NCBI GenBank assembly: GCA_000934665.2
Contig: JYFJ02003350.1
Span: forward strand, 1 to 43,297
Source: Catajapyx aquilonaris
Lineage: Eukaryota
DNA length: 43,297 nucleotides
Direction: 5' to 3'
Both the position numbers and the translations under genes were made by a program. Numbering within the stretch: the stretch's first letter is position 1; every line of letters starts with the position of its first letter. The notes beneath the pieces are model-generated. The model had not been told where the DNA came from. It did not search any database and saw nothing but the letters and a program-made list of their open reading frames with translations. Shown here in pieces: positions 131-43,061 of the stretch.

Positions 131-838
131 AACTGCACTTTTTGAGTTGAAATATCCAAAATTTATGATTCTTTGTTACATTTTTTAATGAAGTTTGGTC
201 TTTCATCTGCTAGTTTTGACATAAATATTTTTCATCCTCTGAATGTACAGTATGTGGGTGTCCATTCTAAAGGGTCTAACTTACAGTACAAAAACAATAG
301 CATTTAGCCCCCCAACCCCCTTTGCACATTCGTCCCTTCAGGGTTGGAATTACTGGCAAGGTGAACGGCCATGATGAGACCCCGGATTCATTTCGGCAGG
401 GACTTTCCGTGGGCCTGAGGGTACTGTGGAAAAGGGCGCTGGCCTCTTCCATTCTCCCAAACTGTAGGTTGAAATCCAGTGGTTGGATTGTGAAGAAGAC
501 GAACAACTGGAAGGACCCCTATAAACTCTGTTTCGCCAACAACAACAACAACAAATGGTGTGGGCGTCTCCTTATTTTAACGAGTTGGATGTTGCCCACT
601 ATATTGCTTCAGACGGATTGTAAAATTGTCTTAAGGTAGTAGAGATGTCAGGTAAAATACAGTGTCTGGAATTTTTAAAATTGCGATTAATGAATAGCTA
701 GCGACCTCTTGACCGCCTCTGGGTATTAAAGATCTTGCCCCCCCTGAAGGGTCAATATTAAAGGCAGGAAGGGCGATTCCCGTTCTTGAAATCCACTTTT
801 TGGGAGGGTTTCAGGTGTAATTAAGTGGTGGTCCTTAC

Positions 839-917
839 CTGGTAATTTCCTCTAGGAGTTTGCATGGATCGGCTGCGTAGAACTTGACTCCGAAGTATAG
901 AGTGAAGGGCTCGGTAT
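839..917 (-). CDS. EPB41L4A: FERM-domain band 4.1-like protein, internal coding exon, 79 bp, phase 1/2
   Basis: Minus strand: atgttatttccAG|ATACCGAG...ATTACCAG|GTaagg, translating to (N)[26 protein letters not shown]. The [20 protein letters not shown] string is characteristic of the EPB41L4A subfamily. The gene continues beyond position 1. Confidence 0.95.
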
Positions 918-1837
918 CTGGAAATAACATGGCATCAACGCCCAATTAATAATAGGGTATGAGATTGTAATAATAATTGCGTAAAAGTGCGTGCACACCA
1001 GGAGCATTTCTTTGTGTGTGTAAAAAGTGAGATAAGAACATGGTGACATTTCCTTTCGCTTTTGACCTGCACGAGAACTCCCCTGCTGAGAAATCCTGCC
1101 GAGGACTTAGGCCCGGGATTATATGGAATTGTGTCAGGTCCTTAAACTCATGAAGTGTGGATAAGGATCGAGCTATCACATAAATTCTAGCCAATCGTGA
1201 GCATTTTTGACAAAAAAAAATTTCAGCGGGTTTTGAATAATGCTTATGTTGTGGGGGGGACCTATATACAGTGAAACGAACCTATCAAATAAATTCAAGC
1301 TTGAATCGGATCAGAATCCAACAAAATGTCCCTATTTTGGACCACAACCAATCCTGTGAAGCAACTTCCACCCTGCCGTTCCACAATAGGCATAATCTGC
1401 ATATCCAGGGCTATAACTCAGGATCCACCGGACTCGATGTGTCTAGAATGAATGATGTCCTTATCCTTCCTCCACCTCTCGTCCAACCTCCCCAAAAAAA
1501 TGGTCAATGTAACACAAACTTGATGTATCTTCCCGCCCACGAAGGGACATCACCTGTCCATCCTATCTTGCAAATCCCCTTTTCAGGTTGTGACCATCCA
1601 GAAGAGGCGTGAAATCAGGTAGAGAAGGGGACTTTGGGAAGGGTCGTGGATCAAAATGACGGGCGTTTATCGCTCTAGAAGAGGACGAACACAACACGAC
1701 AACGACAAAACAACAACAAGAGAAGAAGGGTTTTTCTGCACGCTCACTTCCTCAACACAATAAATTTTCTCTGGAGGAGGTTATGCTCCATTAAAGGCGA
1801 CTTCCACCTGGGACAGTAAAGAATGTGGAGTTTCAGG

Positions 1838-2760
1838 ACGAATTTTTGTTGAAAACGGCCGTTAAACCCTGCGCGTCCCATATGTGGACCCTGTAGTCTG
1901 CAGGGTCTACATAGGAACGCGAAGGGACTAACGGCCGTTACTCAGCAAAAATTCGGACCATGGGCGTCCCTGTGTGGACCCTGTAGTCTGCAGGGTCTAC
2001 GTAGGGACGCGCAGGGACTATTAAAAGTCCGTTATTCAACAAAATTTCGGTCCCTGCGCGGACCTTGTAGTCTGCAGGGCCCACACAGGGGACACGCAGG
2101 GACTAACGGCCGTTATTCAACAAATAATAGGACCCTGCGTATCCCTGTGTGGACCCTGTAGTCTAGCTGAAGGGTCCACACAGGAACCGTCCCTGTGTGG
2201 ACCCTTCAGCTAGACTACAGGGTCCTGAGGGACGTGCAGGGACTAACGGCCGTTATTCATTAAAAATTGAGTGCATGTGTGGACCCTGTAGTCTGCAGGG
2301 CCAACACCGTGGACATGAATTGACTAACGACCGTTATTCCACAAAAATCCAGTCCCTAAGCGTCCCTGTGTGAACCCTGTAGTCTGAAGGGTCCAAACAG
2401 GGACTCGCAGGGACCCAATTTTTGTTGAATAACGGCCGTTAGTCCCTGCACGTCCATGGGTGGACCCTTCAGACTACAGGGTTCACACAGGGACGCTCAG
2501 GGACTGGATTTTTGTCGAATAACGGTCGTTAGTAAATTCATGTCCACGGTGTGGGCCCTGCATACTACAAGGTCAGCGAATTTCTCTTGAATAACGGACG
2601 TTATAGTCTCTGTGCGTCCCTATGTAGACCCTGCAGACTACAGGGTCCACACAGGTACTGAATTTTTAATGAATAACGGTTATTCAACAAAAATTGGGTC
2701 CCTGTTTGGACCCTTCAGACTGCAGCAGGGTCCACACAGGGAAGCGCAGGGACTAACCGT
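1838..2760. repeat. Tandem array of self-complementary ~80-120 bp units in mixed orientation
   Basis: Repeated ggaccctgtagtctgcagggtcc...gggactaacggccgttattcaacaaaaatt. The orientation flips near 2410 (cagactacagggt copies follow). Confidence 0.85.
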
Positions 2761-5834: not shown

Positions 5835-5877
5835 TCTTCAACTGCTTGGCCACCTTCTTGGTCGGATCCAGCCAGTG
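5835..5877 (-). CDS. EPB41L4A: FERM-domain band 4.1-like protein, internal coding exon, 43 bp, phase 0/1
   Basis: Minus strand: ttgttttacttttcAG|CACTGGCTGGATCCG...TTGAAGA|GTgagt, translating to HWLDPTKKVAKQLK+A. Contains the FERM WLD motif and is in frame with the 105-bp exon. Confidence 0.93.
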
Positions 5878-6392: not shown

Positions 6393-6866
6393 TCCGTTGT
6401 ACAACGGTCAGTAATGTACAGGACGCCTTTTTCCGGAATCAAGCAGCGTGCGCCACCTACTAATTTTATTCTCAGTTTCCTCAAAGTCTTCAGGTCGAGT
6501 AATCACCCATAGAAACCCAATTCCACCCATCTGCTCATAGTTTGTAATGTCCAAGACGCCTTTTTGCTGAATCAAGCAGCGTGCGCCACCTACTGATTCC
6601 ATTCTCAGTTTCCTCAAAGTCTTAAGGTGGAGTAATCACCCATAGAAACCCAATCTCGCCCGTCTGCTCATATTTTGTGTCATGTCTAAGAATGATGCCC
6701 GTCCGTTGTACAACGGTCAGTAACGTACAAGACGGCTTTTCTCGGAATCAAGCAGCGTGCGCCACCTACTGATTTTATTCCCAGTTTCCTTCAAGTCTTC
6801 AGGTGGAGTAACCACCCTTAGAAACCCAATCTTGCCCATCTGCTCATATTTTGTGTCATGTCTTAA
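6393..6866. repeat. Three-copy tandem duplication (~140-185 bp unit)
   Basis: gaatcaagcagcgtgcgccacctact...tagaaacccaat...ctgctcata occurs at about 6437, 6569 and 6745. Confidence 0.85.
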
Positions 6867-7804
6867 GTGCCCTATAGAGACACTGAGGGTACCAGTGACC
6901 CCGCCCCATCTCCTCCATATTCCGTCTCCTTCAAAAAAAAACAACTGGTCATTAAGACCTGGGCATCGTTTATCAAAAACCCATCCTCTGAAGTTGGCCC
7001 ACGGGCAAATGCTCACCGGTACTGTACATAAGACAGTAATGAGAATACCGGCTCACGAAGAGTTCTCCGTACAAGGAAGGGCGAGGTTCTAAAGGCAAAA
7101 GATGGGGTAGACGACGGTGTCTGGGTCGTTGACACTTTTCGTGATCTGGAACTTCCATCCTGCCGGCTCGTTTCGCGCTTGGCTTGTGGCGAAAGGAAGA
7201 GTCACGGCCGCTTAATCTATCTCGACACCGCTACCTTTACCACCGACCCATGTTTGTTTTGGCGACTCAGGAAGAGAGGAATTGGGGTGACTCACAGGTA
7301 GAGGGCAGGGTGGAGTCGGGTGTACAGGGTGGCATGTATGGGACCAGGGTGGCATATGTGAGTGGGTCATTATCAAAGCCAGGCTGTCTGCTGAATCGTT
7401 TAGAAAAGAGTTCAGATTTAGTGAGTCTTTTCATGGCCCAGATGACCGTGGCCAATGGGAGGTGGATCTATTGTATATCTATTGTATAGATTGGAAATTG
7501 GAATTTAGCCTTAAATAACTGGGAATTAAGACACTTGAGACACCATGAGGCAGCCTGGTTTTGGTAATGACAGGCCAGGGTGACATGTATGTGTCCAAGA
7601 TGGCATGTATGCGTCCATGATGGCATGCATGCGTCCATGATGGCATGCATGCGTCCATGATGGCATGCATGCGTCCATGATGGCATGCATGCGTCCATGA
7701 TGGCATGCATGCGTCCAGGATGGCATGTAGGCGTCCAGGATGGCATGTATGCGTCCAGGATGGCATGTATGTCTAGGGTGGTATGTATGTGTCCAGGGTG
7801 TCAT

Positions 7805-8421: not shown

Positions 8422-8526
8422 CGTTTGCTTAGTGTCGTCCACATAACGTAGTCCAAAATACGCTGTTTCAATCAGGTTGAGATGCTTGAACACGTTGTCC
8501 AGTAGTTCCTGACCAGTGGTGGTATC
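8422..8526 (-). CDS. EPB41L4A: FERM-domain band 4.1-like protein (EPB41L4A/NBL4-like), internal coding exon, 105 bp, phase 0/0
   Basis: Minus strand reads ttttcttcgtAG|GATACC...AAGCAAACG|GTaact and translates to DTTTGQELLDNVFKHLNLIETAYFGLRYVDDTKQT. This matches the FERM F1 lobe motif (LNLxExxYFGLRY). Orthology to EPB41L4A is from recalled sequence similarity, not a search. Confidence 0.93.
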
Positions 8527-10765: not shown

Positions 10766-11889
10766 TTTTATAAATTTAAATGAGTACATCGTCCGAAACA
10801 AACGTCCTTCTCTCAACAATATACGACCTCATCTGCACGACAAGTGAGACATTAAGCAGCCCATTTTGTCACCGTATACGGAACCCCCGTTTTTTTTTGT
10901 ATATCCCTATGACACCCCCGTACATGGCAAACTGCAGTGTCCCTAGCGACAAACAAGCCAGAGATTCCTTTCAAAGTCATCCAGTTAACAGGTGACATCC
11001 AGTTGTTGCCGAGGTAAATCATGCGGTCCCGTTTTCTTCATCATTTGGTATTCTTAGTGCGATGGCTGTTGCAGTGCAAGGACCTTTCTATGGCCAACAG
11101 CGGAAATTGTCTATTCGGAAACTGGTTACCTCCCTGTTTAAAAAAAAATATGATGGACTAGTTGTAATTAATGCAGTGTATACACAGTGCGGATAAATTC
11201 ACATCAAAGGAACACTGTGTAATGAAAATCTGTGGTATCGTAGGTACCATTGTGTAATATGTTCTGCAATAAACAAGGTGGAATATTATGGTGAAAGCTC
11301 CAGTCACGCCTATAGCGGCCAAGGACCCTCATGGTCAAGCGGATTCGAAGCCCTTGGGCCACTGTTTACGAAGAAATAAGATAAGAAAAAAAAGGGACAC
11401 GCAACGGTAGGGTAGACCATATGGTCCATATGGTCACTTGTACCGTATTTCCGCATGCCTGTCCATCATCAAAAAATTGGCACCTTCTAAAAACACATTG
11501 TTTGTTGTTGTTGTTTACTCTTAGGGCGTACCTATTACTCAACCCTCGTGATCTTGGAAAGGTGGGGTCATTATACTGGGCATCTCGAGTCATGAAACTT
11601 CCTTCTTCAAGGGCTCCGGCTAATGGAAGCTGTGCCATTGCACTCCGCCAAACCCCGGCGTGTCTAAGATGGACGCAGTAGATACGTGCAAGGTATTTTT
11701 TTGTGAGGATATAGACGTAGAGAGGTCTTATTTCAAAAAAGAAAAAAAAAGAAGAGTGGCTTTGTAGAGTGTAGTCAGTGGGTCGATGGTTTGGGGACAG
11801 GTTGGTCATGAGTGTCTCCTTAATGGTTGAAGTGGGCATACCTGCTGGGACACTCATGCAGATGTCTCAAATAATGATTAGGAAAGTGC

Positions 11890-13982: not shown

Positions 13983-13984
13983 AT

Positions 13985-14154: not shown

Positions 14155-14158
14155 TAGG

Positions 14159-14540
14159 TAGGGCTGTGCGATATCCGAAATTGCATATCGACTTTCGATA
14201 CTCAAAAAATATCGAATCGAAGTCGATATATCGAAAATCGAAAAACCGACATCGCAAAATATCGAATCGAAGTCGATACGGTATATCGAAAATCGAAAAA
14301 CCGACATCGCAAAATATCGAAAACCGACATCGAACCGACATCGAAAAATATCGAAAACCGACATCGAACCGACATCGAAAAATATCGAAAACCGACATCG
14401 AACCGACATCGAGAAATATCGAAAACCGACATCGCGATATTCGGTACATCACACATGCCAAGCGTCGGATATCGCAACTTCGATAGTATTAGGAAAATAT
14501 CGCATCGACAGTCGATGTATCGAAATATCGCACAGCCCTA
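14159..14540. mobile_element. hAT-type MITE (TAGGGCTG ends) with expanded internal repeats
   Basis: TIRs tagggctgtgcgatat / atatcgcacagcccta; flanks ttaatagg / tttataag (6 of 8 match); same family as 8050-8229. Confidence 0.85.
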
Positions 14541-15628
14541 TTTATAAGTATAGACATTTCTTTAAAAATATGGCCTGCTCCACTACAAAACGTATTGTTC
14601 ATACCCTGCATTGTTATCTCCACGAAATGAGGGCGAAAACGCTGTTTAAATACTTAAACAATGTAGCCAACCAGCGCAGTGATCAATCACCAACCGTAAT
14701 TAACTGATCAGTAGGCTCCGGTATAATTGCGGTCGTAAATCCAACGATCTACTAAAGAAGTGGGATTCTGTGCTAATGATTAAAAAAAAACTCCTTTCGT
14801 TTTTCAAAAAAAAACAAACAAACAAACAAAAAAAGTTGTACTCTCTAAAAACAAAAGCAAGTGAGCAACCTCGTAAAACCAGACTTCAAACTACTAATTA
14901 ACTTCTAAACCAGCTGGTAAAATGCACTACAAGTGCGAAAATGTCTGGGTGACAAATGTGCCCTCTGGTAGTATAGGACAAGTACCACTTCCTATAGAGT
15001 TTTGTATGAGGAGGTTCACCGGACTCAAAATGGCTTCAGGCGTGGAATTGGGTACCTTCCTCTCTAGGACACCCAAGTCGCGAATCAAGGTGGGGGAAAA
15101 CTCATTTCCTTGTCGTCTGCTCCTCTGGGCCTTTTGTTGCCCCGGGCCGAGCACATGGGCCGTAAAAAAGGGGGGCAAAAACATGGAACAAATTCAAAAA
15201 AGGGTTCCTGGATTATAAATGGCGACTGATAAAACTGGGTGAGGATTGCCCTTTGAATTGGAGGCCATTTCATATGTTTACGGGCCAGTTTGCTTTGTGA
15301 TGGGGATTATCATAGCCTGGGTGGAGAGTAGTAGTGGGTAGATGGTACCCTGATAGGAGGGTAGAGATCTGTTTTAAATGGGGGCTAACTTGGGATTGGA
15401 TATTAAAAAGTGGTGGGGTAGAATAGAAATGGTAGGAAATTAATAGGGTGGAATAGATCAGTTAGGAAATGAACAAGATTAGAAACGTGAGCGTGATTCG
15501 AGTCGACTTTTTCTCATGGAGCACAGTAGACTGACAACATACTTTGAATACGATACGAATAGAACGTTGTCAGTTTCGCGTCTCGCTGCCAAGGAACCCC
15601 AAAGACACCAGCCTGTAAAACTTAACCT

Positions 15629-15830
15629 TGGCGGATAGAGTGTACCCGGATAACCGGAAGTAGCCGGTCACCGGAAGTTGATCATGAAACCTATTTTGGC
15701 CATGCTAAGTCCGAATCCGAAAACCGTTTGTCGATATCTCTTGCAGTTTAGGCCCTGATACCTGTCCACGGACGGACAGGCGGACAGAGCCGTTCTATAA
15801 GACCTTTTCCAATGAAAAAGAGTCTAATAA
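15629..15830 (+). mobile_element. Helentron-associated/DINE-1-like non-autonomous element
   Basis: ggcggatagagtgtacccgg...gatacctgtccacggacggacaggcggacagagccgttctataagacctttt..aaaagagtct: GAC(A/G) microsatellite plus 3' stem-loop; related sequence at 43062-43270. Confidence 0.55.
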
Positions 15831-15849
15831 GTGGTAAAAATAGTGGAAT

Positions 15850-25068: not shown

Positions 25069-26279
25069 GAATTTTCGCTCACATTTTTCAAGTTCAAATC
25101 TGCTAAAACCCTACCTGAACCTCACAAATCAATCGCCATATTTTTCGCAAACTCCATAACTGTCCCCATAAACTTCCAAAGCACTTATAGGAAACCATAC
25201 TTATCGTGAGTGACACAAGAACCTTTGGAATGTTCCAAACGGTGGAAAATGGTTCAAAAAAGCTAGTTTTTTGGGGGGAGGCCACCCTTTAGCCTTAGGC
25301 CCTAAGGAGGCGTGGTTCTTTCGGCGGTTCTTGGCTAGCACCAAATGAAATGAAATTAAAACTTTGGCCTGGGTGTTAAATCAAACCGTGGCCTCTAGGC
25401 AGGTGTGGCAGGGGGGAAATTGGGCATTTTTTTGAGACAGGAAGGGCCAATGGGGGGTGCATACCTGGAATTAGGTAGGTGAGCCCAAGAGCCAATTAAG
25501 AACAGGTAAAAAAAATTCAAGCAATATTTAGGGCAATACTGTAAAATTGTAGGTCACCTCACATCGTCATAGGTGGCCAACAATCAATTTATTAAACTAG
25601 CCTCGCTCTAAGATACTCATACGACACCTAGCCTCCTCCCATGTCCACCACCCAACATATCGTACTTATTAACAATTTTTAAAAAAATATATATTAGCAT
25701 TGTACGTCCTAGAACCCATTTATCATCCACAACAATGCAACAGACGATCACAGAATATTTTTTCGATATTTTCCGTTCCAAAAAAAAACAAGTAAGTCCC
25801 CCCCTGTCATTTTGAGAAGAAGGTTGTGAGCTATTTGCCTTCAGGCCTCGACCTTTCGTTTTACACGAAAAGCAATTCCCTGGAATCCCAGGTAATTCTA
25901 CCAGCCAACAAACTCAGGTGTGCTCCAGGCTCCTAATAACACCCGTTCGGAAAATGATGATGCTCTGGTATGTTACCGGTACCCCCCCCCCNCCCATTCT
26001 GATTACCATCCTCAAGAAAGATCTAGAAACAAAAACAAAAAAGAGACGGAATTTGAAATGAGACTTAAAAACCAGTTTTGGTTTCCTGGAAAACAGTAGG
26101 GAAGGGTGACAGGTTATTTACTGGGGTTTGAATTTGTTTAATTCATGATTAGGTGGGGTGCAGAGGGTGTAATTATGGAAGAATTATGAGTGAACTAGTA
26201 GGGCACTATTTGAAAGAAATTGGACTAAAATTGTTATTAATTTAACCGTTCATGCAGTCGTACAATAAAAGGATGTCTA

Positions 26280-26880
26280 TTTATTTATTTACTTATTTAT
26301 TTATTTATTTATTTGTGAAAAATTATTATTATAATTTTTCTGTGGAAATTATTTGTATTTATTTGTGAAAAATTATTATAATAATTTTTCTGTGGAAATT
26401 ATTTGTATTTATTTGTGAAAAATTATTATAATAATTTTTCTGTGGAAATTATTTGTATTTATTTGTGAAAAATTATTATAATAATTTTTCTGTGGAAATT
26501 ATTTGTATTTGTTTGTGAAAATTTATTATCAAATTTAGTTATTTATGTATCTGTGGATAATGGATATTATGTATTTATTTATTATTAACTATACTTATTT
26601 ATTAGTAACGATATTTTAATAACTACAGTTTAATAAATCTATTTTAATAACTACATTTTAATAAATCTATTTTAATAACTACATTTTAATAAATATATTT
26701 TAATAAATATATTTTAATAACTACATTTTAATAAATATATTTAATACATATATTTTAATAAATATATTTTAAATAAATATATTTTAAATAAATATATTTA
26801 ATAAATATATTTTAAATGAATATATTTAATAACTATATTTGTAATAAATTTATTGTTGAATTTATTGATCTACCAGGTAT
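26280..26880. repeat. ~50-bp AT-rich minisatellite plus TATTTTAATAAATA repeats
   Basis: atttgtgaaaaattattataataatttttctgtggaaattatttgtattt, about 4 copies. Confidence 0.88.
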
Positions 26881-28479
26881 TTATTTATGAAATATGAGAA
26901 TTGGAGTCTGTGACGTGCCGTTTGTGTGAACTGATCTGCCTCATAGGTCATCCTTATGACCCAGAGTCGTGGTCTAATAATACACAGGCTCTCAACACTG
27001 ATTAATTATCCTAGCCTCGTGTCCGTCTGTCTCACGGCTTATTACAAAGCTAGCCTCCACCCAGGTCCGCCTCCTGTCGCCAGCGTCATCTATATAGTGA
27101 CACTTTTTGACAACTGCGTGTCTAACTTGTATTGCCATAGTTGGTAGCCCCTAAGATTTTGATTCCTTCGGGTTGACACCCGCAAAACTAGAAACCGACA
27201 AAAAAAAGAAACCAGGTCTGATACCATCTTGAAGAAGTTTCTCACGTAATAAACTGTTCCACTCGACGACTCATGAATGCGTGTCGTGGTAGTTGGTCAT
27301 CTATAACGACTTTCATTGACAACTTCCTTTCCTGTTACAAGGTTCAGGAGACGAAACTTGTTATAATGACACTTCCGAAGGGAATTTGTCATATTCCGAG
27401 ACTTGGTGACATCATAGCCCAGACATAATGTGACAAACACGACTGCTGGTTGGTGGACACGTGTATTGATTTTTGTGTTGTAAACTGGGTTCTAAGTGCA
27501 CTGTTGATGGGGGTTGGTATGCTACAGGTGAGATACTATGCATATTGCACTGAATTTGAGCAAAAAATTAATTAAAAATTAATTTTATGCCTAATATACT
27601 GCTGTACTGCCACGAAATGACGGAAATTTGTGAATAACTTGGTCATATTAGCTACAAATTTGGTGCTTTAAATTTTATACCATATTAGTGGATCTCAGCC
27701 AATTTGCATGCCAAGTTTCAGTACTATCAGTAGTCTAAAAGTGGATTAGACAGGCTTTATATAATGAGCTATGTGATACTGGCTCCATTGTTTGTAATCA
27801 GTTCATAGACACCCTGGGTCGAGGCTAGCTGTCCACTTATTACAGGATGTCATCCACTGCACTTTTAAATATCATATCTGTAGTAATTATGAACCTCCCT
27901 CATTTATTTCAAATCCCTTCATTAGTATCAGGCGTTTAATAACCAGCAAGACTTAGCAATAAAATTTCAAACGCGTTCCACTCCAATTCTACTCTTAATA
28001 ACAACACAACGTTCGGAAATACTTAGACCCAAGACTTAATCCCAGGCACAGACTTAATGCAATAATAAAAGCTCCCCAAAAAACACCTCATTAGTTCCAA
28101 CGATCTTTAAGCAGACATTATTGCAGCAAATTAGAGACGAGAAAACATATCTTACGAGTCTCCCATTCCTTTTACTGAGCTTCGTAAAATTAAATATTCA
28201 GAATGGGGGGGAGGGGGGGGGGAAAGATCAGAGAGAAAATCTTGCAAGGAGGAGAAAATATCTTAAGTAATTTTTTTTTTGGAGACTTGATTTCGGCCAG
28301 AAAGTTTATAGCTCTTGGTAGATGGCGCTTCCAGCACTTTGCTTCCAAAAGGGGGGGTCGAAATATCGAGGAATTTTCCATGAATGAAGGATGAGTGGAG
28401 AGATTTTCTATTTAATAGTAGAATATGGTGGAAGAATTTTCAGGAGGCATATTGAAGGTGTAATATTGTTAGATTATTA

Positions 28480-29300
28480 ACCTTTTCCTGGTTTTTTACA
28501 CATTTATTTTTAAATATTTATTTATACATATTACATTTCCTTATTTTCAAATATTTATTCATAGATTACTTTTCCTTATTTTCTAATGTTTATTTATTTA
28601 CGATTACATTTCCGTATTTATTTTTAAACTTCCTTATTTATTTTTAAATGCTTATTCATATTTTGTTTCCTTATTAATTTTTTACATTTCTGATTTGTTT
28701 ACTTTTACATAGTTATCTGTTTTTAAATATTTATTTGTATTTTGTTTCAATATTTTTTTACATTTTTGACTTGTTTACTTTTACGGACTTATCTGTTTTA
28801 CATAGTTATTTTTTGCATACCGATATTTATTTTTAGATATTCATTTTTGTTTAATTGTTTTAAGTCTTTATCTATTTATATATTTATTTACTTGTTTATT
28901 TTACTTATTTGTCTGTTTATTCTTTCAATTATTTAATCGCCTATTTATCCTTTCAATTATTTAATCACCTATTTATCCTTTCAATTATATTACTTCCGCA
29001 TTCTATCCATAATATAACTACATTCTTTCAATTATTAAATCACTTATTTATTTATTTATTATAACTCACTTATTTATTATAATTCATTTATTTATTTATT
29101 ATAATTCACTTACTCTATTTTATTAATTTATTGTTTGCCCATTCGCACTTAAATTCTTATTTCCCAATTTAAATGCCATCTTTTTCGTTTATATTTAATG
29201 ATATATATCCCACTGCATTATTTTACACATTACTGTACTAAGAAAATATTTAAGAGTAAGATTATGTGCAAAAAAATGCATAAAAATGACAATATTATAG
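28480..29300. repeat. T-rich low-complexity block
   Basis: Visible directly. Confidence 0.7.
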
Positions 29301-29919: not shown

Positions 29920-30960
29920 TAGCAGGCTTAGTACTGAACAAATCGTTCAAATATTTGCTTTAATTTTAATGAAATTGGCAAAACCTCAGCCATTTTATAT
30001 CCAACCGCTTGAATCCGCCATCTTGTATCCGCCATCTGGTATCGTAATAGCAGGCCAATACTGAACAAATCGTCATAATTCATATGTTAGCTTTAATTTT
30101 ACTGAAATTGGCAAAACATAATTCATTTTAGATCCGCCAGCTTGAATCTGCCATCTTGGATCCGCCATTTTCCGCCATTTTGGATATTTTTAAATATTTT
30201 AGTTATTTTTAAATATTTATATTTTAGATATTTTTAAATATTTTTAAATATTTATATTTTAGATATTTTTAAATATTTTTAAATATTTATATTTTAGATA
30301 TTTTTAAATATTTTTAAATATTTATATTTTAGATATTTTTAAATATTTTTAAATATTTATATTTTAGATATTTTTAAATATTTTTAAATATTTTCAGATT
30401 TAGTTTTAGATATTTAAAATATTTCAAAGTATCTAAAATATTTTTTAAATATTTTCAGACAGGTTTGTTTTCAGATATTTTCAGATATTTTCAGATATAT
30501 TTTTAACTTTTTCTATGCCCTATTTTAAATATTTTAGATATATTTTGAGTATTTTAGATAATTTTAACTTTTTCAATATTTTAAATATTTTCAGATGTAG
30601 TTTTAGATACTTTTAAATATTTTAAATATTTTCAGATATAGTTTTAGATATTTAAAAATATTTCAAAGTATCTAAAATATTTTTAAATATTTTCAGATAT
30701 ATTTTTAACTTTTCGATACTTTAAATATTTTAGATATATTTAGATATATTTTCAGTAATTTAGATATATTTAGATATATTTTCAGTAATTTAGATATATT
30801 TAGATATATTTTCAGTAATTTAGATATATTTAGATATATTTTCAGTAATTTAGATATATTTTCAGTAATTTAGATATTTTAAAGTCTTTCTTAGCTATTC
30901 TTAACTGTTTTTAGATATTTAATAAATGTTTTAGATATTTGTCAATATTTTAGGTATATT
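29920..30960. repeat. ATCCGCCATCTTG-containing duplication followed by TTTTTAAATATTTTAGATA satellite
   Basis: Two copies of tactgaacaaatcgt..gaaattggcaaaac..atccgccatcttg, then AT satellite at 30180-30960. Confidence 0.82.
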
Positions 30961-31669
30961 TTTAGCCCATCCGTATCAGTGAGCTGGAGTCACGCCATCT
31001 GTCAGAATTCCGACCAACTACCGCCTGCAGTAATAAGGATAATGCACTCTACAGGGTGTGCATAAACGTCACGCTGACGCCTATCAGCCCATTACTAACG
31101 ACTTAAAAAATGTCAATAACTCAATATGATACGCATGCTCACAAGATAAAACAGGAAATCATTAACCTGCCCCGGATTTCCGTCCACCTGACGTTACACC
31201 TGACGCTTTACAACCGGGTCCGACAAAACGTATTCAGGAGAAACGCACCCGACTGTAACGTTGCTTGACAACCCTTTCAGAGCAGCGTATTGCGCTGCGT
31301 ATATGTGCAATGTGCAAAAAAAAAAGTTGGAACCACATCAAAGGGGTACGGGGGTTCTCAATTTGCAAAAGTCCATTCATCGTCGCTCCTTGTCGAACAT
31401 GTGGTTATCCAATTACGCGCCATCAAGAGTTATATACTGTACTTGGATACGGCGCGGCGGTTCTTTGCGCGTCAGTGGGTTGTTTTTAGTGATGCCCTAA
31501 AATCGGATTGCCTGGGAGTGACATGAGGGTGTCGGGTTACAGTATAGGGGAAGAGATAGTATTGAATATCGAGAGATATGTGCTAGGGGTGGATACAATG
31601 CAATGGGCTGTGGGGCATGAAACGCGATTAGAACGTATGAGTACACACGTCGTCAGGTATCGGAACGTC

Positions 31670-32919: not shown

Positions 32920-34300
32920 ATATTAATATTTATTAGTTTATTATTTTCACATTTTTAATAGTTAACAAGGAACGCCCAGCCGTTTTGTGCGAATAGTGTT
33001 CGGGACATACTGCTGAATCGCTACTAAATGGTAGAAAACTGTCTATAACTGGTCCTATTTCTAACATTAGCGATTATTAAATTTTTGTAGCATATGTTAA
33101 CATATCTGCTATCAACATGCCAAGTTTCAACCCATTCAGTAGCGTAGAAGTAGGTTAGATGTCGTGTTTTACAAACTGCTGTATCGTCACGAAATGCTAT
33201 AAATTTGCCTATAACTGATCCTACAATTAAAATATGCAATTATTAAATTTTTGTAGCATAATGTGACATCAGCTATCATTATGCCAAGTTTCAGCCCATT
33301 CAGTAGCCTAGAAGCACGTTACGTCGTCGTCGTGTTTTGCACACACTGCCGTATCGCCACGAAATGCTATAAATTTGCCTATAACTGATCCTACAATTAA
33401 AATATGCAATTATTAAATTTTTGTAGCATAATGTGACATATGAGCTATGAGTATGCCAAGTTTCAGCTCTTGCAGTAGTCTGAAAGTGGGTTAGATATCT
33501 CGGGCATGCACACAAACGTGCTGCTTTATATGCAGAGACAGAGACCCCCATCGCATACATTGTTATTTATTAATATGTATTAGTTTATTATTTTAAATTT
33601 TTAACTATTAAAATTAAGTGTGCCGAACACTATTAACTATTAAAACTATTAACTATTATTAACTACTAACTATTAAAATTAAGTGTGCCGAACACTATTA
33701 ACTACTAAAACTATTAACTATTATTAACTACTAACTATTAAAATTAAGTGTGCCGAACACTATTAACTATTATTAACTACTAACTATTAAAATTAAGTGT
33801 GACGAACCCTATTAACTATGAAAACTATTAACTACTTTTAACTATTAAAACTATTAACTACTTTTAACTATTAAAACTATTAACTACTTTTAACTATTAA
33901 AACTATTAACTACTTTTAACTATTAAAACTATTAACTACTTTTAACTATTAAAACTATTAACTACTTTTAACTACTAACTATTAAAATTAAGTGTGCCGA
34001 ACACTATTAACTATTAAAACTATTAACTACTTACTATTAAAATTAAGTGTGTGCCGAAAACGACTTATTGACACAAACCCTTTTGTGTGAATAAATCGTG
34101 TTCGCCACACACTGCTGAATCGCCACGAAATGTTATAAATTTGTCTATAACAGGTTCTATTACTAATATTTCCGCTTATTAAATTTTCCTAGCATATTAG
34201 AGCTATGACTATGCGAGGTTTCAGCCCTTTCAGTAGCCTAGTAGGTTATACATCTCGAATATGCATACAAACGTGCTTCGTTATAATTGCATATTTTAAA
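32920..34300 (+). repeat. Helitron/Helentron-like ~170-bp tandem units (33009-33535, 34110-34285) flanking an ACTATTAA satellite (33600-34060)
   Basis: atgccaagtttcagcc..cagtag..aagt(g/a)ggtta motif in each unit; the same motif occurs at 27706-27763 and 37661-37742. Confidence 0.7.
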
Positions 34301-35239
34301 CTGTTATAGCCGTTCGTGCCATATCGCCATTAGCCATCCCGCCTCAGCAGGACATTACTTAATTTTTATTATCCCCACCTTATTACAACCCCCCCTGCTT
34401 AAGAATGCATGAAGTTTAACCATTTTGTTGCTGGAACTAGGAAAAAAATAATTAGACAAAATTGCAGTACCACCGATCTATAAGTCTGGAAAAGTACAGT
34501 GCTGCCCCCACCAAAACTAGTGGCGTTTCAAACTAACAGTTAAGATGCTATTGTCACCTTGTCCTTATAAAGGTGTCACCCAGCACCAATTGACCCAACT
34601 GATTTACAACTAGTGTTGCAACCTATATCCTTGGACCCTACTTGCTTTTTTGTACAATAGAACCCTCCTGCTGGGTTTACTGTGGCCAATCGATGCTTGT
34701 TGTACATAGGCACGTACACTATATGTGGTGAGTTCAAAGGGCAAGGTAAAACTGAACAAAGGAAGTACCTTAAATCATAGTTTATATCCAACATGGGTGG
34801 GTGGAAGAGGCTTAATTTAGCTCTAATTAAATTTTGGGGAAGTTTTAAAAAGAAAATATTTAAACAATAGTCCTATAGAGGGCAAACTATCCCAGGAAGC
34901 TAATTAAGCGTCTATTGTAACCACAACTATAGCTTTAACAATTGTGCAAAAGTTTTAATCAGTATCAGATGTTAAAATCAATGATTTTAAGTTTAAAGGG
35001 CTGCATGGATGGGATATTGTCCAAATAACACCATGGGAACTGTGGCTTCTTCAGTCGGGGTCAAATGTCGCGGCTGAGTGACCAAGAGGAAAAAGAGCCG
35101 TGGCACTTCGCTGTGTGGTCACTTCAAGGCAGCAAAAAACGGAGTTTCCCAGGGAAAACTTTGGCTTTGTGACGTAATTGTTGCCCACAAGACAGGCCAT
35201 GAGACATTTTGTTGGCTCTCAATTAGTTTAAATCATCAA

Positions 35240-36290: not shown

Positions 36291-37031
36291 CATATTGCTC
36301 ATTAATTGTCCTGCTAATTAGTAACGCCCCCTACCTCATCAGATAGCCATTTACCCATCAAATTCCAGTCTAGCCAACAGTTAATTCATCTTTTCAATCC
36401 CTCCCATTGGATTTCCGAGCTGTTCCAATTTCCCTCATTCCTTGACAAATGATTTCCGCCATCAAAGACCAATCCGGACGTATTGGTCACCAGATGGAGG
36501 TACCGTATGTTTTTTTGTGTCAACCCCCTCCCGCATGGTTGACTCAACAAGGGTGGGGGGGGGGGTCAACCCNTGACTCAACAAGGGGGGGGGGGGGGGG
36601 GGGTCAACCCCCCCCCCCTATCGAAATGGAAAGTTTTTCGCCTCAGTTTGTCTTTTTGGCGAGGATCCAGAGCGAAGTAGATTCACTCGCGTGGAATGGA
36701 AAAAAAAAAAGGTTGAAACAACCAGTTAGGTTCGAGCGTGAAATGATGGAGCGCATCGCAGTGTCCATTTACTGATGAGTACTTTCAAGCTTGGTGTAAT
36801 CATTCAAGCCCGAGGCTTGCTTATTAATTTGGTAAAGCCAACCGGATGGGTACATGCTAAGCACTTGTTTCGCATTTGGATGGGGGACCAGTGGTGCCAT
36901 CTTGGCTTAAAACGGCTTATAAACAGATTTAGGTAGCGTACTGCTGTATTGCCACAGACTAGTGGAAATATGCATATAACTGGTTCTAATGTCACAAAAT
37001 CGGGTGTTTTGGACTGTGATAGGATATAGTA

Positions 37032-37643
37032 CAGTGCTGGACATAATTATATCGAGGCCATGGTCTTAGAACACTCAGGTCTGGTCACTCCCACTTATCG
37101 CCTGCCGCCCCGGCAGGCGATAAGTGGGAGTGACCAGACCTGAGTGTTCTAAGACCCTATAGTCTTATCTCTTATCGCCTGCCGGGGCATTTTGCATGAG
37201 GTGCTCACTTGAGAGCGCCACGAGACAGCTTTCACTGCTGTAATATGTGGCGACCCTACCGGACCGCGCTGAACTTAGGTAGAAGGGAAGTCGCTACATG
37301 CGGGCTCAACATGGCCGCCTGCGACCATGTTGGGTCCCCCAATGTAGCGCTTTCCTTTTGTACCTATAAAGTTCAGCGTGGTCCGGTAGGGTCGCCACAT
37401 ATTACAGCAGTGAAAGCTGTCTCATGGCGCTCTCAAGTGAGCACCTCTTGCAAAACGCCCCCGGCAGGCGATAAGAGATAAGACTATAGGGGTAGTGTCC
37501 GTGGACTGATCGAGGATACTGCTAGCGACAATTTCCGAAGCGGCAGAAGAAGGAATCTTGCTCGCCCGGCTTATCTTCGATTCCTTCTTCTGCCGCTTCG
37601 GAAAATGTCGCTGCCAGTATGCCTCGATTTATGTCCAACATTG
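37032..37643. mobile_element. Composite TA-flanked Tc1-like foldback element containing three hairpins
   Basis: Outer TIRs TA|cagtgctggacataa..atcgaggc / gcctcgatttatgtccaacattg|TA; internal palindromes at 37062-37156, 37155-37491 and 37509-37628. Confidence 0.7.
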
Positions 37644-38659
37644 TACCACCAGACCTATCAGTGTGCCAACTTTCAGCCCCCTATTAGTAGTCTAGAAGTG
37701 GGTTATACAGCCCTGACATACATACAAATTATGGTTTATATAAAAATGTTTTTAATTTTTATTCATTTACAGTCGTATTTATTTACTTGTAGGCGCTTAT
37801 TAATTTATTCATTTGTAGGAGTATTTAATTGGATAATGAATTGAGTAAAAATTAATTTCCAATAGCAAAATAAATTATTTTTTTAAAAAGTTTAAAAGTT
37901 TAAATGAAATGGGAAATTTTCCCGGAGCATAATAATATCGATACAATATTGAATATCGATATTTGTATAAATGCCCCAATAACCCCAGGTTGATGCACAA
38001 AAACCGTCCATTTCCGTTCCCAGCCCCCAATTGGCACCTAAAAAACCGGGCTTGCCTTTTCCCACAATTTAGATCCGACCAGTAGAATCGGCCTTGAAAA
38101 GGAGGTAGCACTGGAGGGCACATGAAGAGACCCCTCGAGGGGGTCAAAAAACCAAACGGCCAAATTTGCATACAATGGAGTACCGAGAGGGCGGGCTTTT
38201 GGCTCCGGTGTTTATATTAAGATCTAATCCGTTCTATTGCCAGGGTGTCTATGCGTATAGAGGTCAGTATCGATGGCCTTGAGGTGGGAAACTACTAGTC
38301 ATTTTCTGAGAACTGCAAATATTATTGTTGGATGCCCCTGAGATAGTACTAAAAGCGTAATAAACATTTAGCAGTATCTAAATTGCATTACAGCTACAAT
38401 CTAAGAAGTAACGTGCCCTTGGGAGAATTGCCAAACTCTGGACCCATTTTGCCCCGGGGCTATGTTGCCCCCTCTATAATTTGACACACCTTGTGTCTTT
38501 GCCCTCATCTGTTTGCTTTTTTTGTTTCATTAAATATGCTTTAAAAGTGCAACTTGTACTGTGTAATTTCACACACCCCCTATACAATGCCTTTGCCCCT
38601 GTTCAGGGCCGTGTCCCCAGGCCACTTCTGGCCTCCTCTCATGATTTTTTTTACTAAAA

Positions 38660-39520
38660 CATATCGGCATATTTTAAAATCTCAAATGTGCAATTTATGA
38701 TTCGAACTATTAGTGATGTGTACGAACCTGAGTTATGTCATAAATCGGCACATACAAATTTGTGTGATAGTTTGTAGTGCAATGTGTCAAATGTGACATT
38801 CCCTGCCCACACGCGCAAATTTTTATTATTAAATCTATGGATAAATATTTACAAATCAAATGTGTAATTTGTGAAGCGAACTATTGGTGATATTTATGGA
38901 CCCTATGGATACCATAAATCTAAATATGCAAATTTGTATGAGAGTATGTAGTATTCTAATATGCTATGCGGTGCTCCAAATGTGACCCATTACTGGAGAA
39001 AATTTTTGTTATTAAATGTATTAAGGTGAAGTGGGGTAAGTGCATACACGGGGTAAGTGCATACACTGGCCGCCATATTGGAATGAAAATGGCTGACGAC
39101 ACCAACCTCTTGTGGGGATGTTATGTGCAGCTACACAACAGAGTGCCTGACGCGTTTGGTGTCGTCAGCCATTTTCATTCCAATATGGCGGCCCGTGTAT
39201 GCACTTACCCCACTTCACCTTACTAAATATTTAAAATTCAAATGTACAATTTGTGAACCAAACTATTGGTGACATTTATAGACCATAGGGATGCCGTAAC
39301 TATGGATAGAAAAATTGGTATGTGGGTTTGGGCGGCGCTCCAAATGTGATTATGCAATGCCCACACACGCAAATTTTTATTATTACATGTATTAGTAAAT
39401 ATTTAAAATTTAAATGTGCAATTTGTGCACCGAACTATTAGTGATATTTATGGACCATCGGTATGCCATAATTCTGAATATGAAAATATGTATGATCGTT
39501 TGTATGCGGACAAATGCAAC
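38660..39520. repeat. ~175-bp tandem repeat, about 4 copies, one interrupted by a MITE
   Basis: aaatgtgcaattt(g/a)tg..cgaactatt(a/g)gtga at about 38685, 38858, 39241 and 39413. Confidence 0.8.
39024..39220. mobile_element. TA-TSD MITE (Tc1/mariner-pogo type), ends AGGTGAAGTGGGGTAAGTGCATACAC
   Basis: Long TIRs; TA at 39022-39023 and 39221-39222; the paralogous empty site tgtattagtaaatat lies at about 39388-39402. Confidence 0.88.
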
Positions 39521-40339
39521 CGTGCCTGGCAGGGACGGACATTTGTGGGGATCGATGTATCTCTAACAAATGTGTTGTCCTTTTTTTCCATCAAGGACCT
39601 TAGCTAGGTCACGACTATCACGAACCATTCATCACGAGGTCCATCGAGCGCGACCCCGGACAGAAGCCACATGTCCCCCCGTCGATACCATCGTCTTGAC
39701 TCTATTGTGTCGCACCTCAAGGTTTCCCAGCGTGAACACTTGTCGCTCATACCAAGGCGATTTCCTGATTTGCTATAGCGAAGAACTCAACAACATAGGG
39801 TTCACTTTCCCCATTAGCACCGGTCCGTCAAGCGTGAAATGGGATTGGTTAAAAAGAAAAAGCCAGTACGTTCAAGAAAATTAACACTTCTCCAATGTTG
39901 TGATTCCGGTTACGCTTCCGTCTACGATCCGTCTGGAATTATTAAGTAGGGACCTACGTGGCCGGTCAGTACCGCTTCACCGTAACATCCGGATCGGTAA
40001 GAGCAACTCCGGATGGGGAAAAAGGGTTTAACATGCAAGAGAGGGCACCTTAGTCCGAAGGGGTCAATGGCAGGGAAGCGCAGGGGTCGTAGGAACAACC
40101 GGACAAAAGAGGTGTAAGGGAAGTGGGCAAGTCTAGTCTTGCATGCTTCATTGCTGCCGGACCCAACTTTACGACCATGATCGATCTTTATCTATGAGAA
40201 TCGGCCGGTTGTATTAAAATATCTGGTGGAGCAAGTGCCGCGATTGAAGATTATGTACGTGTACTACGATAGGCTTTTATTAGTTGGGTTGGTGATACAA
40301 AAACGCCATCTGTAGTGTACTTAGAGAACTTATATATGC

Positions 40340-40900
40340 AAGAAACGGGCCAAAAACCGGATTTACGCCCAGAAATGTGCGGTTTTTGTGTATCTATCTG
40401 AAGTTTTAGCATGTAGGCTATCAGCCTGCAAATTTTCAACATTATAGACATCTTAAAACCGAGTTAAAACTATATATTTCAAACATACAGCATAGCCCTT
40501 TGTGCTATGTAGCGCCAATTGAACTTTTTGTATAGAGCCAAAAAAAACCGGATTTACGCCTAGAAATGTGCGGTTCTTGAGTCGTTATCTGAAGAATGAG
40601 CATGTAGGCTATCAGCCTGCGAAGTTGCAACATCATAGACAGCTTAGAACCAGGTAAAACCCAAATATTTCAAACATACAACATAGCCCTTTGTGCTATG
40701 TAGTGCCAATTTATTTTTATTTTAACCAAAAACCGGATTTTCGCCTTAAAATGTGCAGTTCTTGAGTCGTTATCTACATCCGTAGCATGTCAGCTATCAG
40801 TGTGCCAATTTTCAACATTATAGACAACTTAAAACCGAGTTAAAACCAGATATTTCAAACATACAACATAGCCCTTTGTGCTATGTAGCGCCAATTTCAA
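40340..40900. repeat. Three-copy ~185-190 bp tandem repeat
   Basis: aaaaccggattt.cgcc..aaatgtgc...catagccctttgtgctatgtag at about 40353, 40544 and 40729. Confidence 0.88.
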
Positions 40901-41644
40901 AATTTTCTGTAGAGATCTGTAATAGGTCTATCAAAAATCTGATTTGACCAGCCGAAAGTACACATTCTAACCTACATTAAAACAATATAGTAACATTTTA
41001 AGTCTGCTTTAAAATATTATTAAAAAATTCTGGAATAAAGGCATCCCGATCCCAATCGTCAGATATGGAGACAATGTATCATTTCCTACATATCTCATTT
41101 GGAGCAATGCTAGTGCGCAGGTTCCGGCCATTTTTAACTTCCTCCCCTCCCCCTCCCCCCACCCTTGATGCTCGAACCATCGATTTCATCCCGACAACCT
41201 CCCCGAGCTATAAATTACATCCGGTTACAAGTTGAAAAGCCTTTCTTTTCATCACGGACACGTCAGAAAATCCTGGAATAGAGATTAACCCTTATCAAGC
41301 CTTTATCAATAGTATCGTCTAAAAAAGAATCGTAAAAATCGTCAGAAGAAGATCGATATTTTTTCGCAATGTTACATAGACTCTTTTTCCAATATTTCAA
41401 CCCCCCTTTTTGCTAGCCCCTCTTCTCGTGTATCTCTTCTGTTGTTTGCAAACCGAATGGAGTCTGCTACATTACCAGGAGATCAATAAACACAGGGGGA
41501 AATACAGGGGGGGAGGAAACCCTCCCCTTTTGGAACATGATGGCGAAAGGAACATTTGGTTGTTAATCATCCGGAGGAACATTCAGAACACATGCTGACA
41601 ATTAGATTTTCAGGCCTTTAAATAATATAGGCCTATTGTCAATA

Positions 41645-42490
41645 GGCATGAAATTGATATAAAATAGTATGAAATTTGTATAACATGGGATGCAATGTGT
41701 ATGACATGGCGTGCAATGTGTACGAAAATGCATAAAATGGGTATAACATTGGATGAAAACGGGATTAAATTGCATGCAATTTGTATAAAATGGCATGCAA
41801 TGGGTATCATTGCATACAATGTGCAGGGTATGTCATGCAATTGGCATGAAATGCATGCAATTGGTATGAAATGCATGCAGTGTGTAGGAAATTGCATGCA
41901 GTGGATATAAAATGGCACGCAACAAGTATGAAATGTCATGAAACTGATATCAAATGCATTCAATGAATATGAAATACGTGCAATGTGTATGAAATGCGTG
42001 TAATGTGCATGAAATGGCATGCATTGGGTATCTATTGAATGCAAGGTGTAGGAAATGTCATGCAATGGATATCAAATGCATTCAATGGATATCAAATGCG
42101 TGCAGTGGCATGAAGTGCATGTAATATGTACATGAAATGCTTGCAATGTGTAAGAAATTGCATGCTATTGATATAAAATGGCATGCAATTTTTATGAAAT
42201 GGCATGCATTGGTTATCTATTGAATGCAAGGTGTGGGAAATGTCATGCAATATATATGAAGTGCATTCAATTGACATAAAATCCATGCAGTGTGTAGAAA
42301 ATTACATGCAGTGGATATAAAATGGCATGCAACAAGTATGAAATGTCATGCAATGGATATCAAATGCATTCAATGGATATCAAATGCGTGCAATGGCATG
42401 AAGTGCATGTAATATGTACATAAAATGCTTGCAATGTGTAAGAAATTGCATGCTATTGATATAAAATGGCATGCAATTTTTATGAAATTT
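41645..42490. repeat. Degenerate ~20-bp satellite (ATGAAATGGCATGCAATGTGT)
   Basis: Visible directly; source of the His/Cys/Met-rich spurious ORFs in the track. Confidence 0.88.
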
Positions 42491-43061
42491 GCAAAAAAAA
42501 TGTATAAAATGCGCATAAAACCGCCAAATAACGAAACAAACGAACACAATAATTGCCCTTTTATTAGGGGCAGTACACCGAAATGTAGGCTAACAATTGA
42601 CATTTTGATGGGTTAATGGCTCATTTTGAATGATCCATAGCTTGATTTTAATTGACGGTTTACCCTTCGAGTCGGATCACGATTATCGGCACTTTCTTAT
42701 CGAGATTGCAATACCAACTTTCCTATTGGCTGAAAAATTCTGCACTATACTCTTGTGCAAAAAAGATTTTCCGGGACCCTTCTCCCCATAAATCCTACAG
42801 GACTAAGATAAAAGAGAAGTGGAGTTTCCTTGCCTTAGAGTAATAACTCACACTATTTTTTTTCCTAGCGTATTCTATTTATTCTGCTAGAAAATAGTTT
42901 TCCAGATTTTTCGCTCGGAATTTAGCCAAAGATGGGAGTAGATATGTCATTATCAGGTGAGGTACCTGGTTAGAGGCTACCTGCTTTGTTAACAGCCCTA
43001 ATATATGAGACTAGTAAGTAAATAGTAAGTTTTATAGTTTTTCGTAGAAAAAAGTATTATA

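Follow-up and report, generated by a model that had tools for sequence, protein, structure and literature searches.

The window, by which we mean the whole stretch analysed, comprises 43,297 nt of Catajapyx aquilonaris DNA (GCA_000934665.2, contig JYFJ02003350.1, positions 1-43,297, forward strand). Three exons of a Band 4.1-like 4A (FERM) gene lie on its minus strand (Table 1). The exon encoding the FERM_N domain is 85% and 79% identical in sequence to two collembolan proteins and is bounded by an AG acceptor and a GT donor. The upstream coding exon of this gene was found neither in the window nor by a genome search. Most of the window is upstream of the gene or within one of its introns, and a large part of it is probably intronic. 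Searches for tRNA genes and Rfam families returned no tRNA gene and no Rfam match.

The pattern is built from single-copy, GC-richer islands about 0.5-1.3 kb long. Between them lie AT-richer linkers, in which tandem duplications and mobile elements collect. The median island length is 779 bp (CV 0.29, 27 window blocks), and the spacing is about 1.5 kb. Island GC is about 0.45 and CpG o/e is 0.65 at the centres and 0.78 at the edges; thus, these are not CpG islands. Unmasked blocks of 1.3-2.5 kb resemble two modules (15 blocks). Such a pair adjoins at about 25554, where a repeat-free, unmasked G-to-C joint has a skew of +0.36/-0.49; another repeat-free flip in unique DNA is located at 1315. The two halves of 27890-28460 have skews of -0.39 and +0.48. 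The island at 14436..15588 belongs, to the right of about 15470, to the neighbouring repeat family, other matches starting at query base 933. The adjoining repeat gave 1,251 first-look candidates and at least 57 matches with 40 candidates scored; it may resemble DINE-1/HINE elements.

Table 1. Coordinates of the gene exons, islands and repeats in the window (paired values are GC skews)
Feature	Position	Strand	Evidence
Third FERM-gene exon	839..917	-	tblastn 100% over 26 aa; CAG acceptor
Next FERM-gene exon	5835..5877	-	tblastn 71% over 14 aa; GTGAGT donor
Band 4.1-like 4A (FERM) gene exon, FERM_N domain	8422..8526	-	Pfam PF09379, E 1e-12
Single-copy island, C-rich to G-rich	6864..7353	.	first/last 200 bp -0.19/+0.18; 6880-7330 matches itself alone genome-wide
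Single-copy island, C-rich to G-rich	10782..11888	.	-0.30/+0.46; 1 match genome-wide (self)
Island, C-rich to G-rich	14436..15588	.	-0.11/+0.38
High-copy interspersed repeat adjoining island; microsatellite and terminal hairpin	15589..15840	.	
Two adjoining C-to-G modules	25066..26277	.	-0.32/+0.51; no other match among scored candidates (25066-26270)
AT-rich tandem-repeat linker (example)	26278..26854	.	TRF; left part G-only, right part C-only; +0.67/-0.56
Single-copy island, C-rich to G-rich	27754..28492	.	-0.16/+0.36
Single-copy island, C-rich to G-rich	30941..31667	.	-0.16/+0.42; 1 genome-wide match (30941-31660, self)
Unmasked island, C-rich to G-rich	34286..35226	.	-0.26/+0.13
Unmasked island, C-rich to G-rich, absent from the original prediction	36293..37057	.	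-0.44/+0.25
Counter-example block, polarity reversed	37740..38672	.	+0.27/-0.31
Unmasked island, C-rich to G-rich	39505..40349	.	-0.12/+0.18
Unmasked island, C-rich to weakly G-rich	40915..41644	.	-0.16/+0.12

Repeats were masked using all-versus-all blastn (the window together with 0.8-1.0 Mb of further sequence from this genome) and TRF. Flank GC skew, (G-C)/(G+C) read toward the repeat, was pooled over the unmasked unique blocks. In the window, 23 of 28 unique blocks of at least 300 bp are more G-rich at their end than at their beginning (sign p 9e-4). The pooled flank skew of 27 window blocks is 0.116, and none of 1,090 circular shifts of the mask reached it (sd 0.025, maximum 0.089; the shifts overlap and are therefore non-independent). 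The original prediction was that unique blocks open C-rich and close G-rich around nearly every repeat block, with a rotational symmetry that one-directional transcription does not explain and more strongly than with shuffled boundaries. The symmetry was confirmed, since G exceeds C outward on both strands, and so was the excess over shifted boundaries; transcription in a single direction cannot produce such symmetry. Nine of the 11 examples named go from negative to positive, but 41140-41520 (-0.45 to -0.07) and 12780-13720 (-0.25 to -0.21) do not. Neither of the two blocks called poor fits (29300-29930 and 37950-38650) flips.

The skew is a diffuse excess of G over C. AT skew on the G-rich strand is close to zero, -0.014 in the window and 0.000 outside it. 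The single-base skew accounts for the asymmetries of di- and trinucleotides (residuals up to 0.10 and 0.26 log2), and a motif search comparing C-to-G with G-to-C jumps yielded no convincing motif (top z 3.2). The excess is a diffuse single-base bias with no oriented motif. Neither homopolymer runs nor the ends of mobile elements account for it. After deletion of G/C runs of 5+, 4+ and 3+, the window flank skew is 0.103, 0.090 and 0.061, so a run artefact was rejected. Unmasked inverted element ends were rejected as well, because the flanks are not multi-copy in the six islands searched genome-wide: three match themselves alone, and three (searched as 14540-15470, 25066-26270 and 27760-28490) have no other match among the 40 candidates scored for each. 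Splice-site composition, a C-rich acceptor and a G-rich donor, was also rejected, as none of the three known exons lies within a plus-strand C-to-G flip. It is further disfavoured by the absence of a Pfam match in all ten window ORFs and by the lack of correlation between AT skew and the GC gradient (r 0.001).

The excess of G over C on the strand leaving the island, present on both strands, climbs from about 0 in the middle of the island to some 0.15 at its outer shoulder. Over 74 islands of three domains (the window and the loci C250 and C900, which are similar), the ramp from centre to edge is 0.003, 0.070, 0.109, 0.151 and 0.116; the G-rich outward strands thus flank a GC-richer element on both sides, and polarity reverses within about 0.5-1 kb. 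The skew is highest in unique DNA and fades over about 100 bp inside repeats. In CpG-high loci, with no masked repeat within 300 bp, it correlates with the GC gradient at r -0.116 (4,067 windows). This repeat-free correlation is negative in 61 of 90 loci (p 3e-6), and in the window r is -0.34 (n=52). Since the skew is present without repeats, the repeats seem to mark AT-rich linkers passively. The flip itself was correctly seen, but it tracks the GC-richer unique islands and not the repeat blocks. Exon edges may account for part of the repeat-free correlation where loci are gene-dense.

The pattern does not extend across the whole genome. Outside the window, 126 of 198 blocks are positive, but the skew is just 0.028; among 19 other contigs it is 0.10 in two and negative in four. 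Held-out continuations of the two strongly skewed contigs, C900 and C250, gave 0.084 and 0.118, with 17 of 21 flanks positive. A class of repeat-dense, CpG-high loci was not reproduced, its skew of 0.099 in 10 discovery loci being 0.030 in 11 held-out ones. In 45 loci beyond the three domains, flank skew was uncorrelated with CpG, density and motif load, and 41 islands in other CpG-high loci show no ramp. The excess of C-up jumps in repeat-poor loci is marginal (p 0.02-0.15). The skew is domain-specific, that is, strong in some contigs and weak or absent elsewhere.

The three domains also differ from the rest of the sampled genome in motif content. GCCATHTT occurs 4.0-8.0 times per 10 kb in them versus 2.1-2.4 elsewhere. 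In their unique DNA GCCATTTT ranks 1 of 840 permutations (40 versus a median of 2), and the bases upstream of it are C/G-biased, a bias absent elsewhere. We assume that the GCCAT-type consensus is a Pho/YY1 site, a feature of Polycomb response elements.

Substitutions were assessed in repeat copies beside islands under 16 filter settings, which share data and are thus non-independent; many statistics were tried. In CpG-high loci the net drift to G on the outward strand is positive in 15 of 16 settings (p<0.05 in four). A>G exceeds T>C on this strand in all 16 (p<0.05 in three). In the best setting the counts are 69 versus 32, and the ratio reverses with the side of the island (32/15 and 17/37). 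The leading substitution type depends on the filter, T>G and C>G under loose filters and A>G under others. T>G together with C>G is a uracil/Rev1-type signature (PMC6063437). This signature was rejected: it is seen with loose filters and lost with strict ones, and is probably an alignment-edge effect. CpG-low control loci gave a nominal signal as well, A>T exceeding T>A, in 5 of the 16 settings. Overall, the repeat copies show a weak, filter-dependent drift to G on the outward strand. One source named at the outset, cytosine deamination at breaks centred in repeats, is not supported by these data. It predicts T over A, in conflict with the AT skew of the window; C>T over G>A has p<0.05 in none of the 16 settings, and a repeat-centred source does not fit a skew that fades inside repeats.

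We infer that the islands are candidate cis-regulatory elements because they are free of repeats and coding signal, lie within a large intron or upstream of it, and carry a YY1/Pho-like motif. Our preferred reading, held tentatively and at somewhat less than even probability, is that the skew may reflect strand-biased mutation from low-level, germ-line divergent transcription at these elements. A strand-asymmetric process would start inside the island and run outward both ways in the germ line, divergent transcription being the likeliest such process. The outward-reading strand would be the non-template strand and would gain G, chiefly by an excess of A>G over T>C, as the repeat copies weakly indicate. 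C>A exceeding G>T, likewise weakly indicated, would hold AT skew near 0. Starts scattered over the island would give a ramp instead of a step. A ramp that peaks at island edges suits a linker-wide source equally well, which speaks against the preferred reading. A broader version appears rather unlikely to us: that domains with dense putative regulatory islands (YY1/Pho-site-rich, perhaps Polycomb-type) each drive outward, sub-kb, strand-asymmetric germ-line mutation, that GC skew alone would map every element, and that adjoining repeat copies would acquire polarity. Should divergent transcription or replication starts have left the skew as their mutational footprint, regulatory elements could be found from sequence alone without functional data, and the human CpG-island pattern would extend to non-CpG, sub-kb invertebrate elements. 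Why just some domains carry the ramp is the question this raises.

Related asymmetries are described in several papers. At human CpG islands (Polak and Arndt 2009, PMC2817419), A>G is asymmetric and C>T symmetric. As in Catajapyx, the asymmetry flips at the island; A>G over T>C outward with C>T/G>A symmetric is weakly indicated in Catajapyx as well. The human effect, however, is about 1.09-fold, constant over hundreds of kb with a sharp flip, whereas the Catajapyx islands show a sub-kb ramp every 1.5 kb or so at o/e 0.65-0.78, with a weakly measured rate asymmetry. Human CpG-island promoters (Ginno et al. 2013, PMC3787257) share the G-rich strand leaving the element. Polycomb targets are over-represented among their 'reverse' Class IV promoters, which are likewise C-rich upstream. 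The human elements are annotated promoters for which R-loop data exist, whereas the Catajapyx islands are dense, non-coding and known from sequence alone. At vertebrate gene 5' ends (PMC2927911) GC skew above 0.1 arises near the start on the non-template strand via substitution bias; that skew is one-directional and accompanied by TA skew, in contrast to the two-directional skew here with AT skew near zero. Drosophila conserved elements (Kenigsberg and Tanay 2013, PMC3671938) share GC-raised non-coding patches of a few hundred bp with symmetric skew. They are defined by conservation, however, and have more A and C downstream, the opposite G/C polarity. Human meiotic break hotspots (Hinch et al. 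2023, PMC7615360) share the kb-scale rotational symmetry, A>G and C>G, and show an insertion excess, but they have strong C>T and are centred on mapped breaks, unlike the C>T-symmetric, sequence-defined islands. In the open-licence literature searched by word matching, no arthropod report of such a pattern was found.

Alternatively, mutation may be unbiased and the G-rich outward shoulders retained for island function, such as nucleosome placement, G-quadruplexes or R-loops. The concentration of skew in unique DNA and its loss inside repeats would suit this, as would the fly conserved elements in GC-raised flanks under weak selection (PMC3671938). G4-like motifs in 186 half-islands number 33 on the outward strand and 21 on the inward one; such an excess is expected from the skew itself. 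Moreover, the bias is diffuse and not motif-based, and presumably neutral repeat copies drift likewise, if weakly, so we consider retention unlikely. Islands could also be preferred replication starts, for example in rapid early-embryo or germ-line cycles, with the outward strand as the lagging-strand template. Bidirectional initiation in unique blocks had been proposed, and the polarity and the weak A>G signal agree with it, but replication and divergent transcription are indistinguishable in the present data. In PMC2817419 a matching polarity and spectrum are attributed to origins at human CpG islands. The A>G excess continues more than 200 bp into repeats (42 versus 19), and A7+/T7+ runs are a little more frequent in the centres of islands (30) than at their edges (13). 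With the observed spacing, however, every island must fire in turn; the human signal is not sub-kb, and AT skew is absent. We regard replication as improbable.

Break repair, in which double-strand breaks across AT-rich linkers expose resected 3' tails to asymmetric mutation and yield tandem duplications, is improbable as well. It fits the polarity, the maximum of skew at island edges and the large number of repeat blocks that consist of local tandem copies; at human meiotic hotspots, C>N and A>N changes are strand-asymmetric and insertions are in excess (PMC7615360). It is opposed by the lack of both a significant C>T excess and a T-over-A skew and by a skew of about 0 at GC-trough centres in repeat-free DNA. 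Strong G-to-C jumps are without repeat enrichment (0.13-0.15, flat), a measure weakened by the fact that inserted DNA would blunt them. That elements insert or are retained, or duplications arise, at existing G-rich/C-rich joints is very unlikely in our opinion. In dense CpG-high loci closeness to a repeat raises the skew above what the GC gradient predicts (t 6.1), a point in favour of such a preference and against the divergent-transcription reading, and GC islands with a nearby repeat are polar in 99 of 139 cases (mean 0.127) versus 126 of 216 (mean 0.027) without one. Yet 20 held-out loci chosen for carrying one window repeat family gave 0.025 (81 versus 60, p 0.09), repeat-dense CpG-low loci are at about 0, and the origin of the skew would stay unexplained. 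The remaining proposal, that G:C pairing in the pre-mRNA loops out repeat blocks, seems scarcely credible, although much of the window is probably intron. K-mer stems and matches were compared across repeats (80 pairs), and cognate flank pairs have more complementary k-mers in common than pairs drawn at random (permutation p 0.001-0.024). However, reverse-complement matches reach 1.13x and 1.58x over shuffles, which does not exceed the 1.20x and 1.83x of direct ones, and the excess is not above that across islands. The longest stems are 7-13 bp, the longest being mostly AT-rich edge remnants.

As a gauge of DNA methylation, transitions in repeat copies were compared between CpG and non-CpG sites, giving 0.075 versus 0.043 in the three domains (305 CpG sites), 0.051 versus 0.037 in CpG-high loci and 0.115 versus 0.033 in CpG-low loci.

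In the window, single-copy islands, the GC-richer unique blocks between AT-richer, repeat-bearing linkers, pass from C-rich to G-rich, as the original prediction held: 23 of 28 blocks are G-richer at the end than at the start. The flank skew, (G-C)/(G+C) of an island flank read toward the repeat, was 0.116 (27 blocks), and none of 1,090 shifted masks reached this value. It is not only a matter of G/C runs, since the skew persists at 0.103–0.061 when the runs are removed. Among the eleven blocks put forward as examples, a sign flip was found in nine and none in two. Of six islands used as queries against the genome (285.6 Mb, 20,583 contigs), three matched only themselves; for the remaining three, none of the scored candidates was a further match. 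The compositional polarity of single-copy islands is real and domain-limited; its mechanism is a proposal.

The ramp was measured in 74 islands of 500–1300 bp from three strongly skewed domains, the window and contigs C250 and C900 of the same genome. On the outward strand, which leaves the island centre, the GC skew from centre to edge was 0.003, 0.070, 0.109, 0.151 and 0.116. Over the same course, GC dropped from 0.45 at the centre to 0.37 at the edge, with an AT skew always within 0.025 of zero. The ramp is present in each domain separately and absent in 41 islands of other CpG-high loci and 46 of CpG-low loci, classes defined by CpG level. Within repeats, the skew decays over about 100 bp. 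It is a single-base bias, from which the dinucleotide and trinucleotide asymmetries derive.

Repeats are unnecessary for the skew. With no masked repeat within 300 bp, it follows the GC gradient in 61 of 90 loci (p 3e-6), is about zero at the centres of 202 GC peaks and 211 troughs, and reaches its maximum 200–350 bp from the peaks. Clean G-to-C joints lie inside unique DNA at window positions 1315 and 25554. Repeats are scarcer at strong C-to-G jumps than 600 bp away (0.07 vs 0.2), and strong G-to-C jumps show no repeat enrichment. The flip had been described as lying around repeat blocks, but it also occurs in repeat-free DNA. What counts against a purely island-based view is that nearness to a repeat brings additional skew in dense CpG-high loci (t 6.1) and that the repeat mask overlooks low-copy families. 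The AT-rich tandem blocks 22984–23703 and 26278–26854 have G with little C on the left and C with little G on the right, and show the island polarity from the linker side. Tandem block 28493–29132 is without this polarity.

Beyond the window, about 980 kb was sampled in 102 loci. The initial 80 loci (19 contigs) have the same direction in 126 of 198 blocks, but the skew is 0.028. Twenty additional loci, chosen by the presence of one window repeat family, gave 0.025, with 81 of 142 flanks positive, 60 negative and one zero (p 0.09). By contig, the flank skew is 0.10 in C250 and C900, 0.07 in C10, and below zero (-0.03 to -0.09) in C1, C60, C1000 and C30. C250 and C900 were chosen post hoc from the data, and the independent check is their new 10-kb continuations, with skews of 0.118 and 0.084, respectively, and 17 of 21 flanks positive. 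The weak skew in most loci and the strong skew in these continuations show that the strong form belongs to certain domains. Repeat density together with CpG level failed as a predictor of skewed domains on held-out loci. Across the 102 loci, CpG depletion is a mosaic (unique-DNA o/e 0.26 to 1.05). Relative to other C/G, CpG loss in repeat copies runs 3.5x as fast in CpG-low loci and 1.4x in CpG-high loci. This uneven loss points to patchy germ-line methylation.

For the substitution test, repeat-copy differences were polarised by majority vote and oriented from the nearest island, leaving aside CpG sites and any position lying almost midway between two islands; block-level sign flips served as the null. 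In CpG-high loci, 16 overlapping filter settings were compared. The net drift was toward G in 15 of them and reached p<0.05 in 4. A>G was commoner than T>C in all 16 (p<0.05 in 3), an excess of C>A over G>T reached p<0.05 in 4, and C>T/G>A was significant in none. These settings imply an equilibrium GC skew of +0.06 to +0.37. For CpG-low loci, no setting gave a significant net drift, but A>T over T>A was significant in 5 of 16; this last signal means that the substitution tests are noisy. An excess of T>G and C>G seen under loose filters was gone under stricter alignment filters. The repeat-copy substitutions hint at a mutational origin of the skew and are not proof. Selection on structure appears doubtful as its source.

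In the reading that we favour, the islands would be regulatory elements at which a germ-line process starts and proceeds outward in both directions, so that mutation on the outward strand is biased toward G. The linkers would tolerate insertions and duplications, and for this reason the flip was first seen at repeats. Divergent transcription is our tentative candidate for this process. It is favoured over replication starting at the islands, which we consider improbable, because the skew range is short and the islands are densely spaced. The shape of the edge-peaking ramp alone fits a source in the island or in the linker and cannot tell them apart; breaks in the linkers seem quite unlikely. 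Passages of a report on human break hotspots (PMC7615360) describe a rotational asymmetry that includes C>T. Under deamination on resected ends, as originally suggested, the G-rich strand should carry more T than A and more C>T than G>A; neither was seen. Pre-mRNA pairing across repeats is not supported either: it predicts specific complementarity, and the enrichment of reverse-complement matches does not exceed that of direct matches.

Human CpG islands, in passages of PMC2817419, switch in A>G/T>C from 0.93 to 1.09, with C>T/G>A symmetric. Parts of PMC3787257 describe CpG-island promoters marked by GC skew, among them a reverse class in which Polycomb targets are abundant, and parts of PMC2927911 describe transcription generating GC skew >0.1 at gene starts. 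Our islands work like these human CpG-island, promoter and gene-start skews but are not members of those classes, because they are not CpG islands and their range is <1 kb. In flies, the flanks of conserved elements are raised in GC, and their local polarity, as reported in passages of PMC3671938, is opposite to that of the window islands. The passages of a strand-asymmetry review (PMC10030826) contain no enhancer-centred GC skew.

The word GCCATHTT occurs 4.0–8.0 times per 10 kb in the three domains vs 2.1–2.4 elsewhere. In their unique DNA, GCCATTTT occurs at 40 sites and ranks first among the 840 permutations of its letters, with C and C/G favoured just upstream. We take this motif to resemble the YY1/Pho consensus. 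GCCATHTT words are also dense inside repeats of the skewed domains (10 per 10 kb).

Features of the window
Feature	Positions	Strand	Remarks
GCCATTTT sites, unique DNA (seven)	6015, 15027, 29989, 32370, 32533, 32688, 41127		
Band 4.1-like 4A FERM gene, three exons	8422-8526, 5835-5877, 839-917	minus	
Four-copy family	about 5097-5351, 10377-10567, 13981-14148, 17225-17402		A and B boxes like those of tRNA genes, by eye
Elements with short terminal inverted repeats	8050-8228, 14160-14539		internal ATCG-rich tandem units, by eye
Large palindromic repeat blocks	1839-2757, 11889-12707, 37058-37739		inverted arms 90-140 nt

The top named homologs of FERM exon 8422–8526 are collembolan (85% and 79% identity); this and the 7tm_7 chemoreceptors and thioester proteins on other contigs mark the animal as arthropod-like. 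The exon begins at a splice acceptor (8526) and no coding exon upstream of it was found within the window, so the stretch from 8.5 to 43 kb is intronic or upstream. The gene would have either a non-coding first exon or an intron that may reach 35 kb or more. The repeat mask covers about 42% of the window, which is a whole contig (C1711); part of the masked DNA is interspersed and much is local tandem duplication. The four-copy family, with 7 copies in an 843 kb sample, is probably a SINE; ARAGORN found no tRNA gene. The excess of the DRE-like TATCGATA in repeats probably stems from the elements with terminal inverted repeats. Window 32823–33309 matches the small contig C16522 with 94% identity across 486 bp; this contig may represent the second haplotype, in which case heterozygosity would be high. 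On other contigs, the genome encodes thioester proteins, and 7tm_7 chemoreceptor-like ORFs form a tandem cluster in one sampled locus (L025:984-8755).
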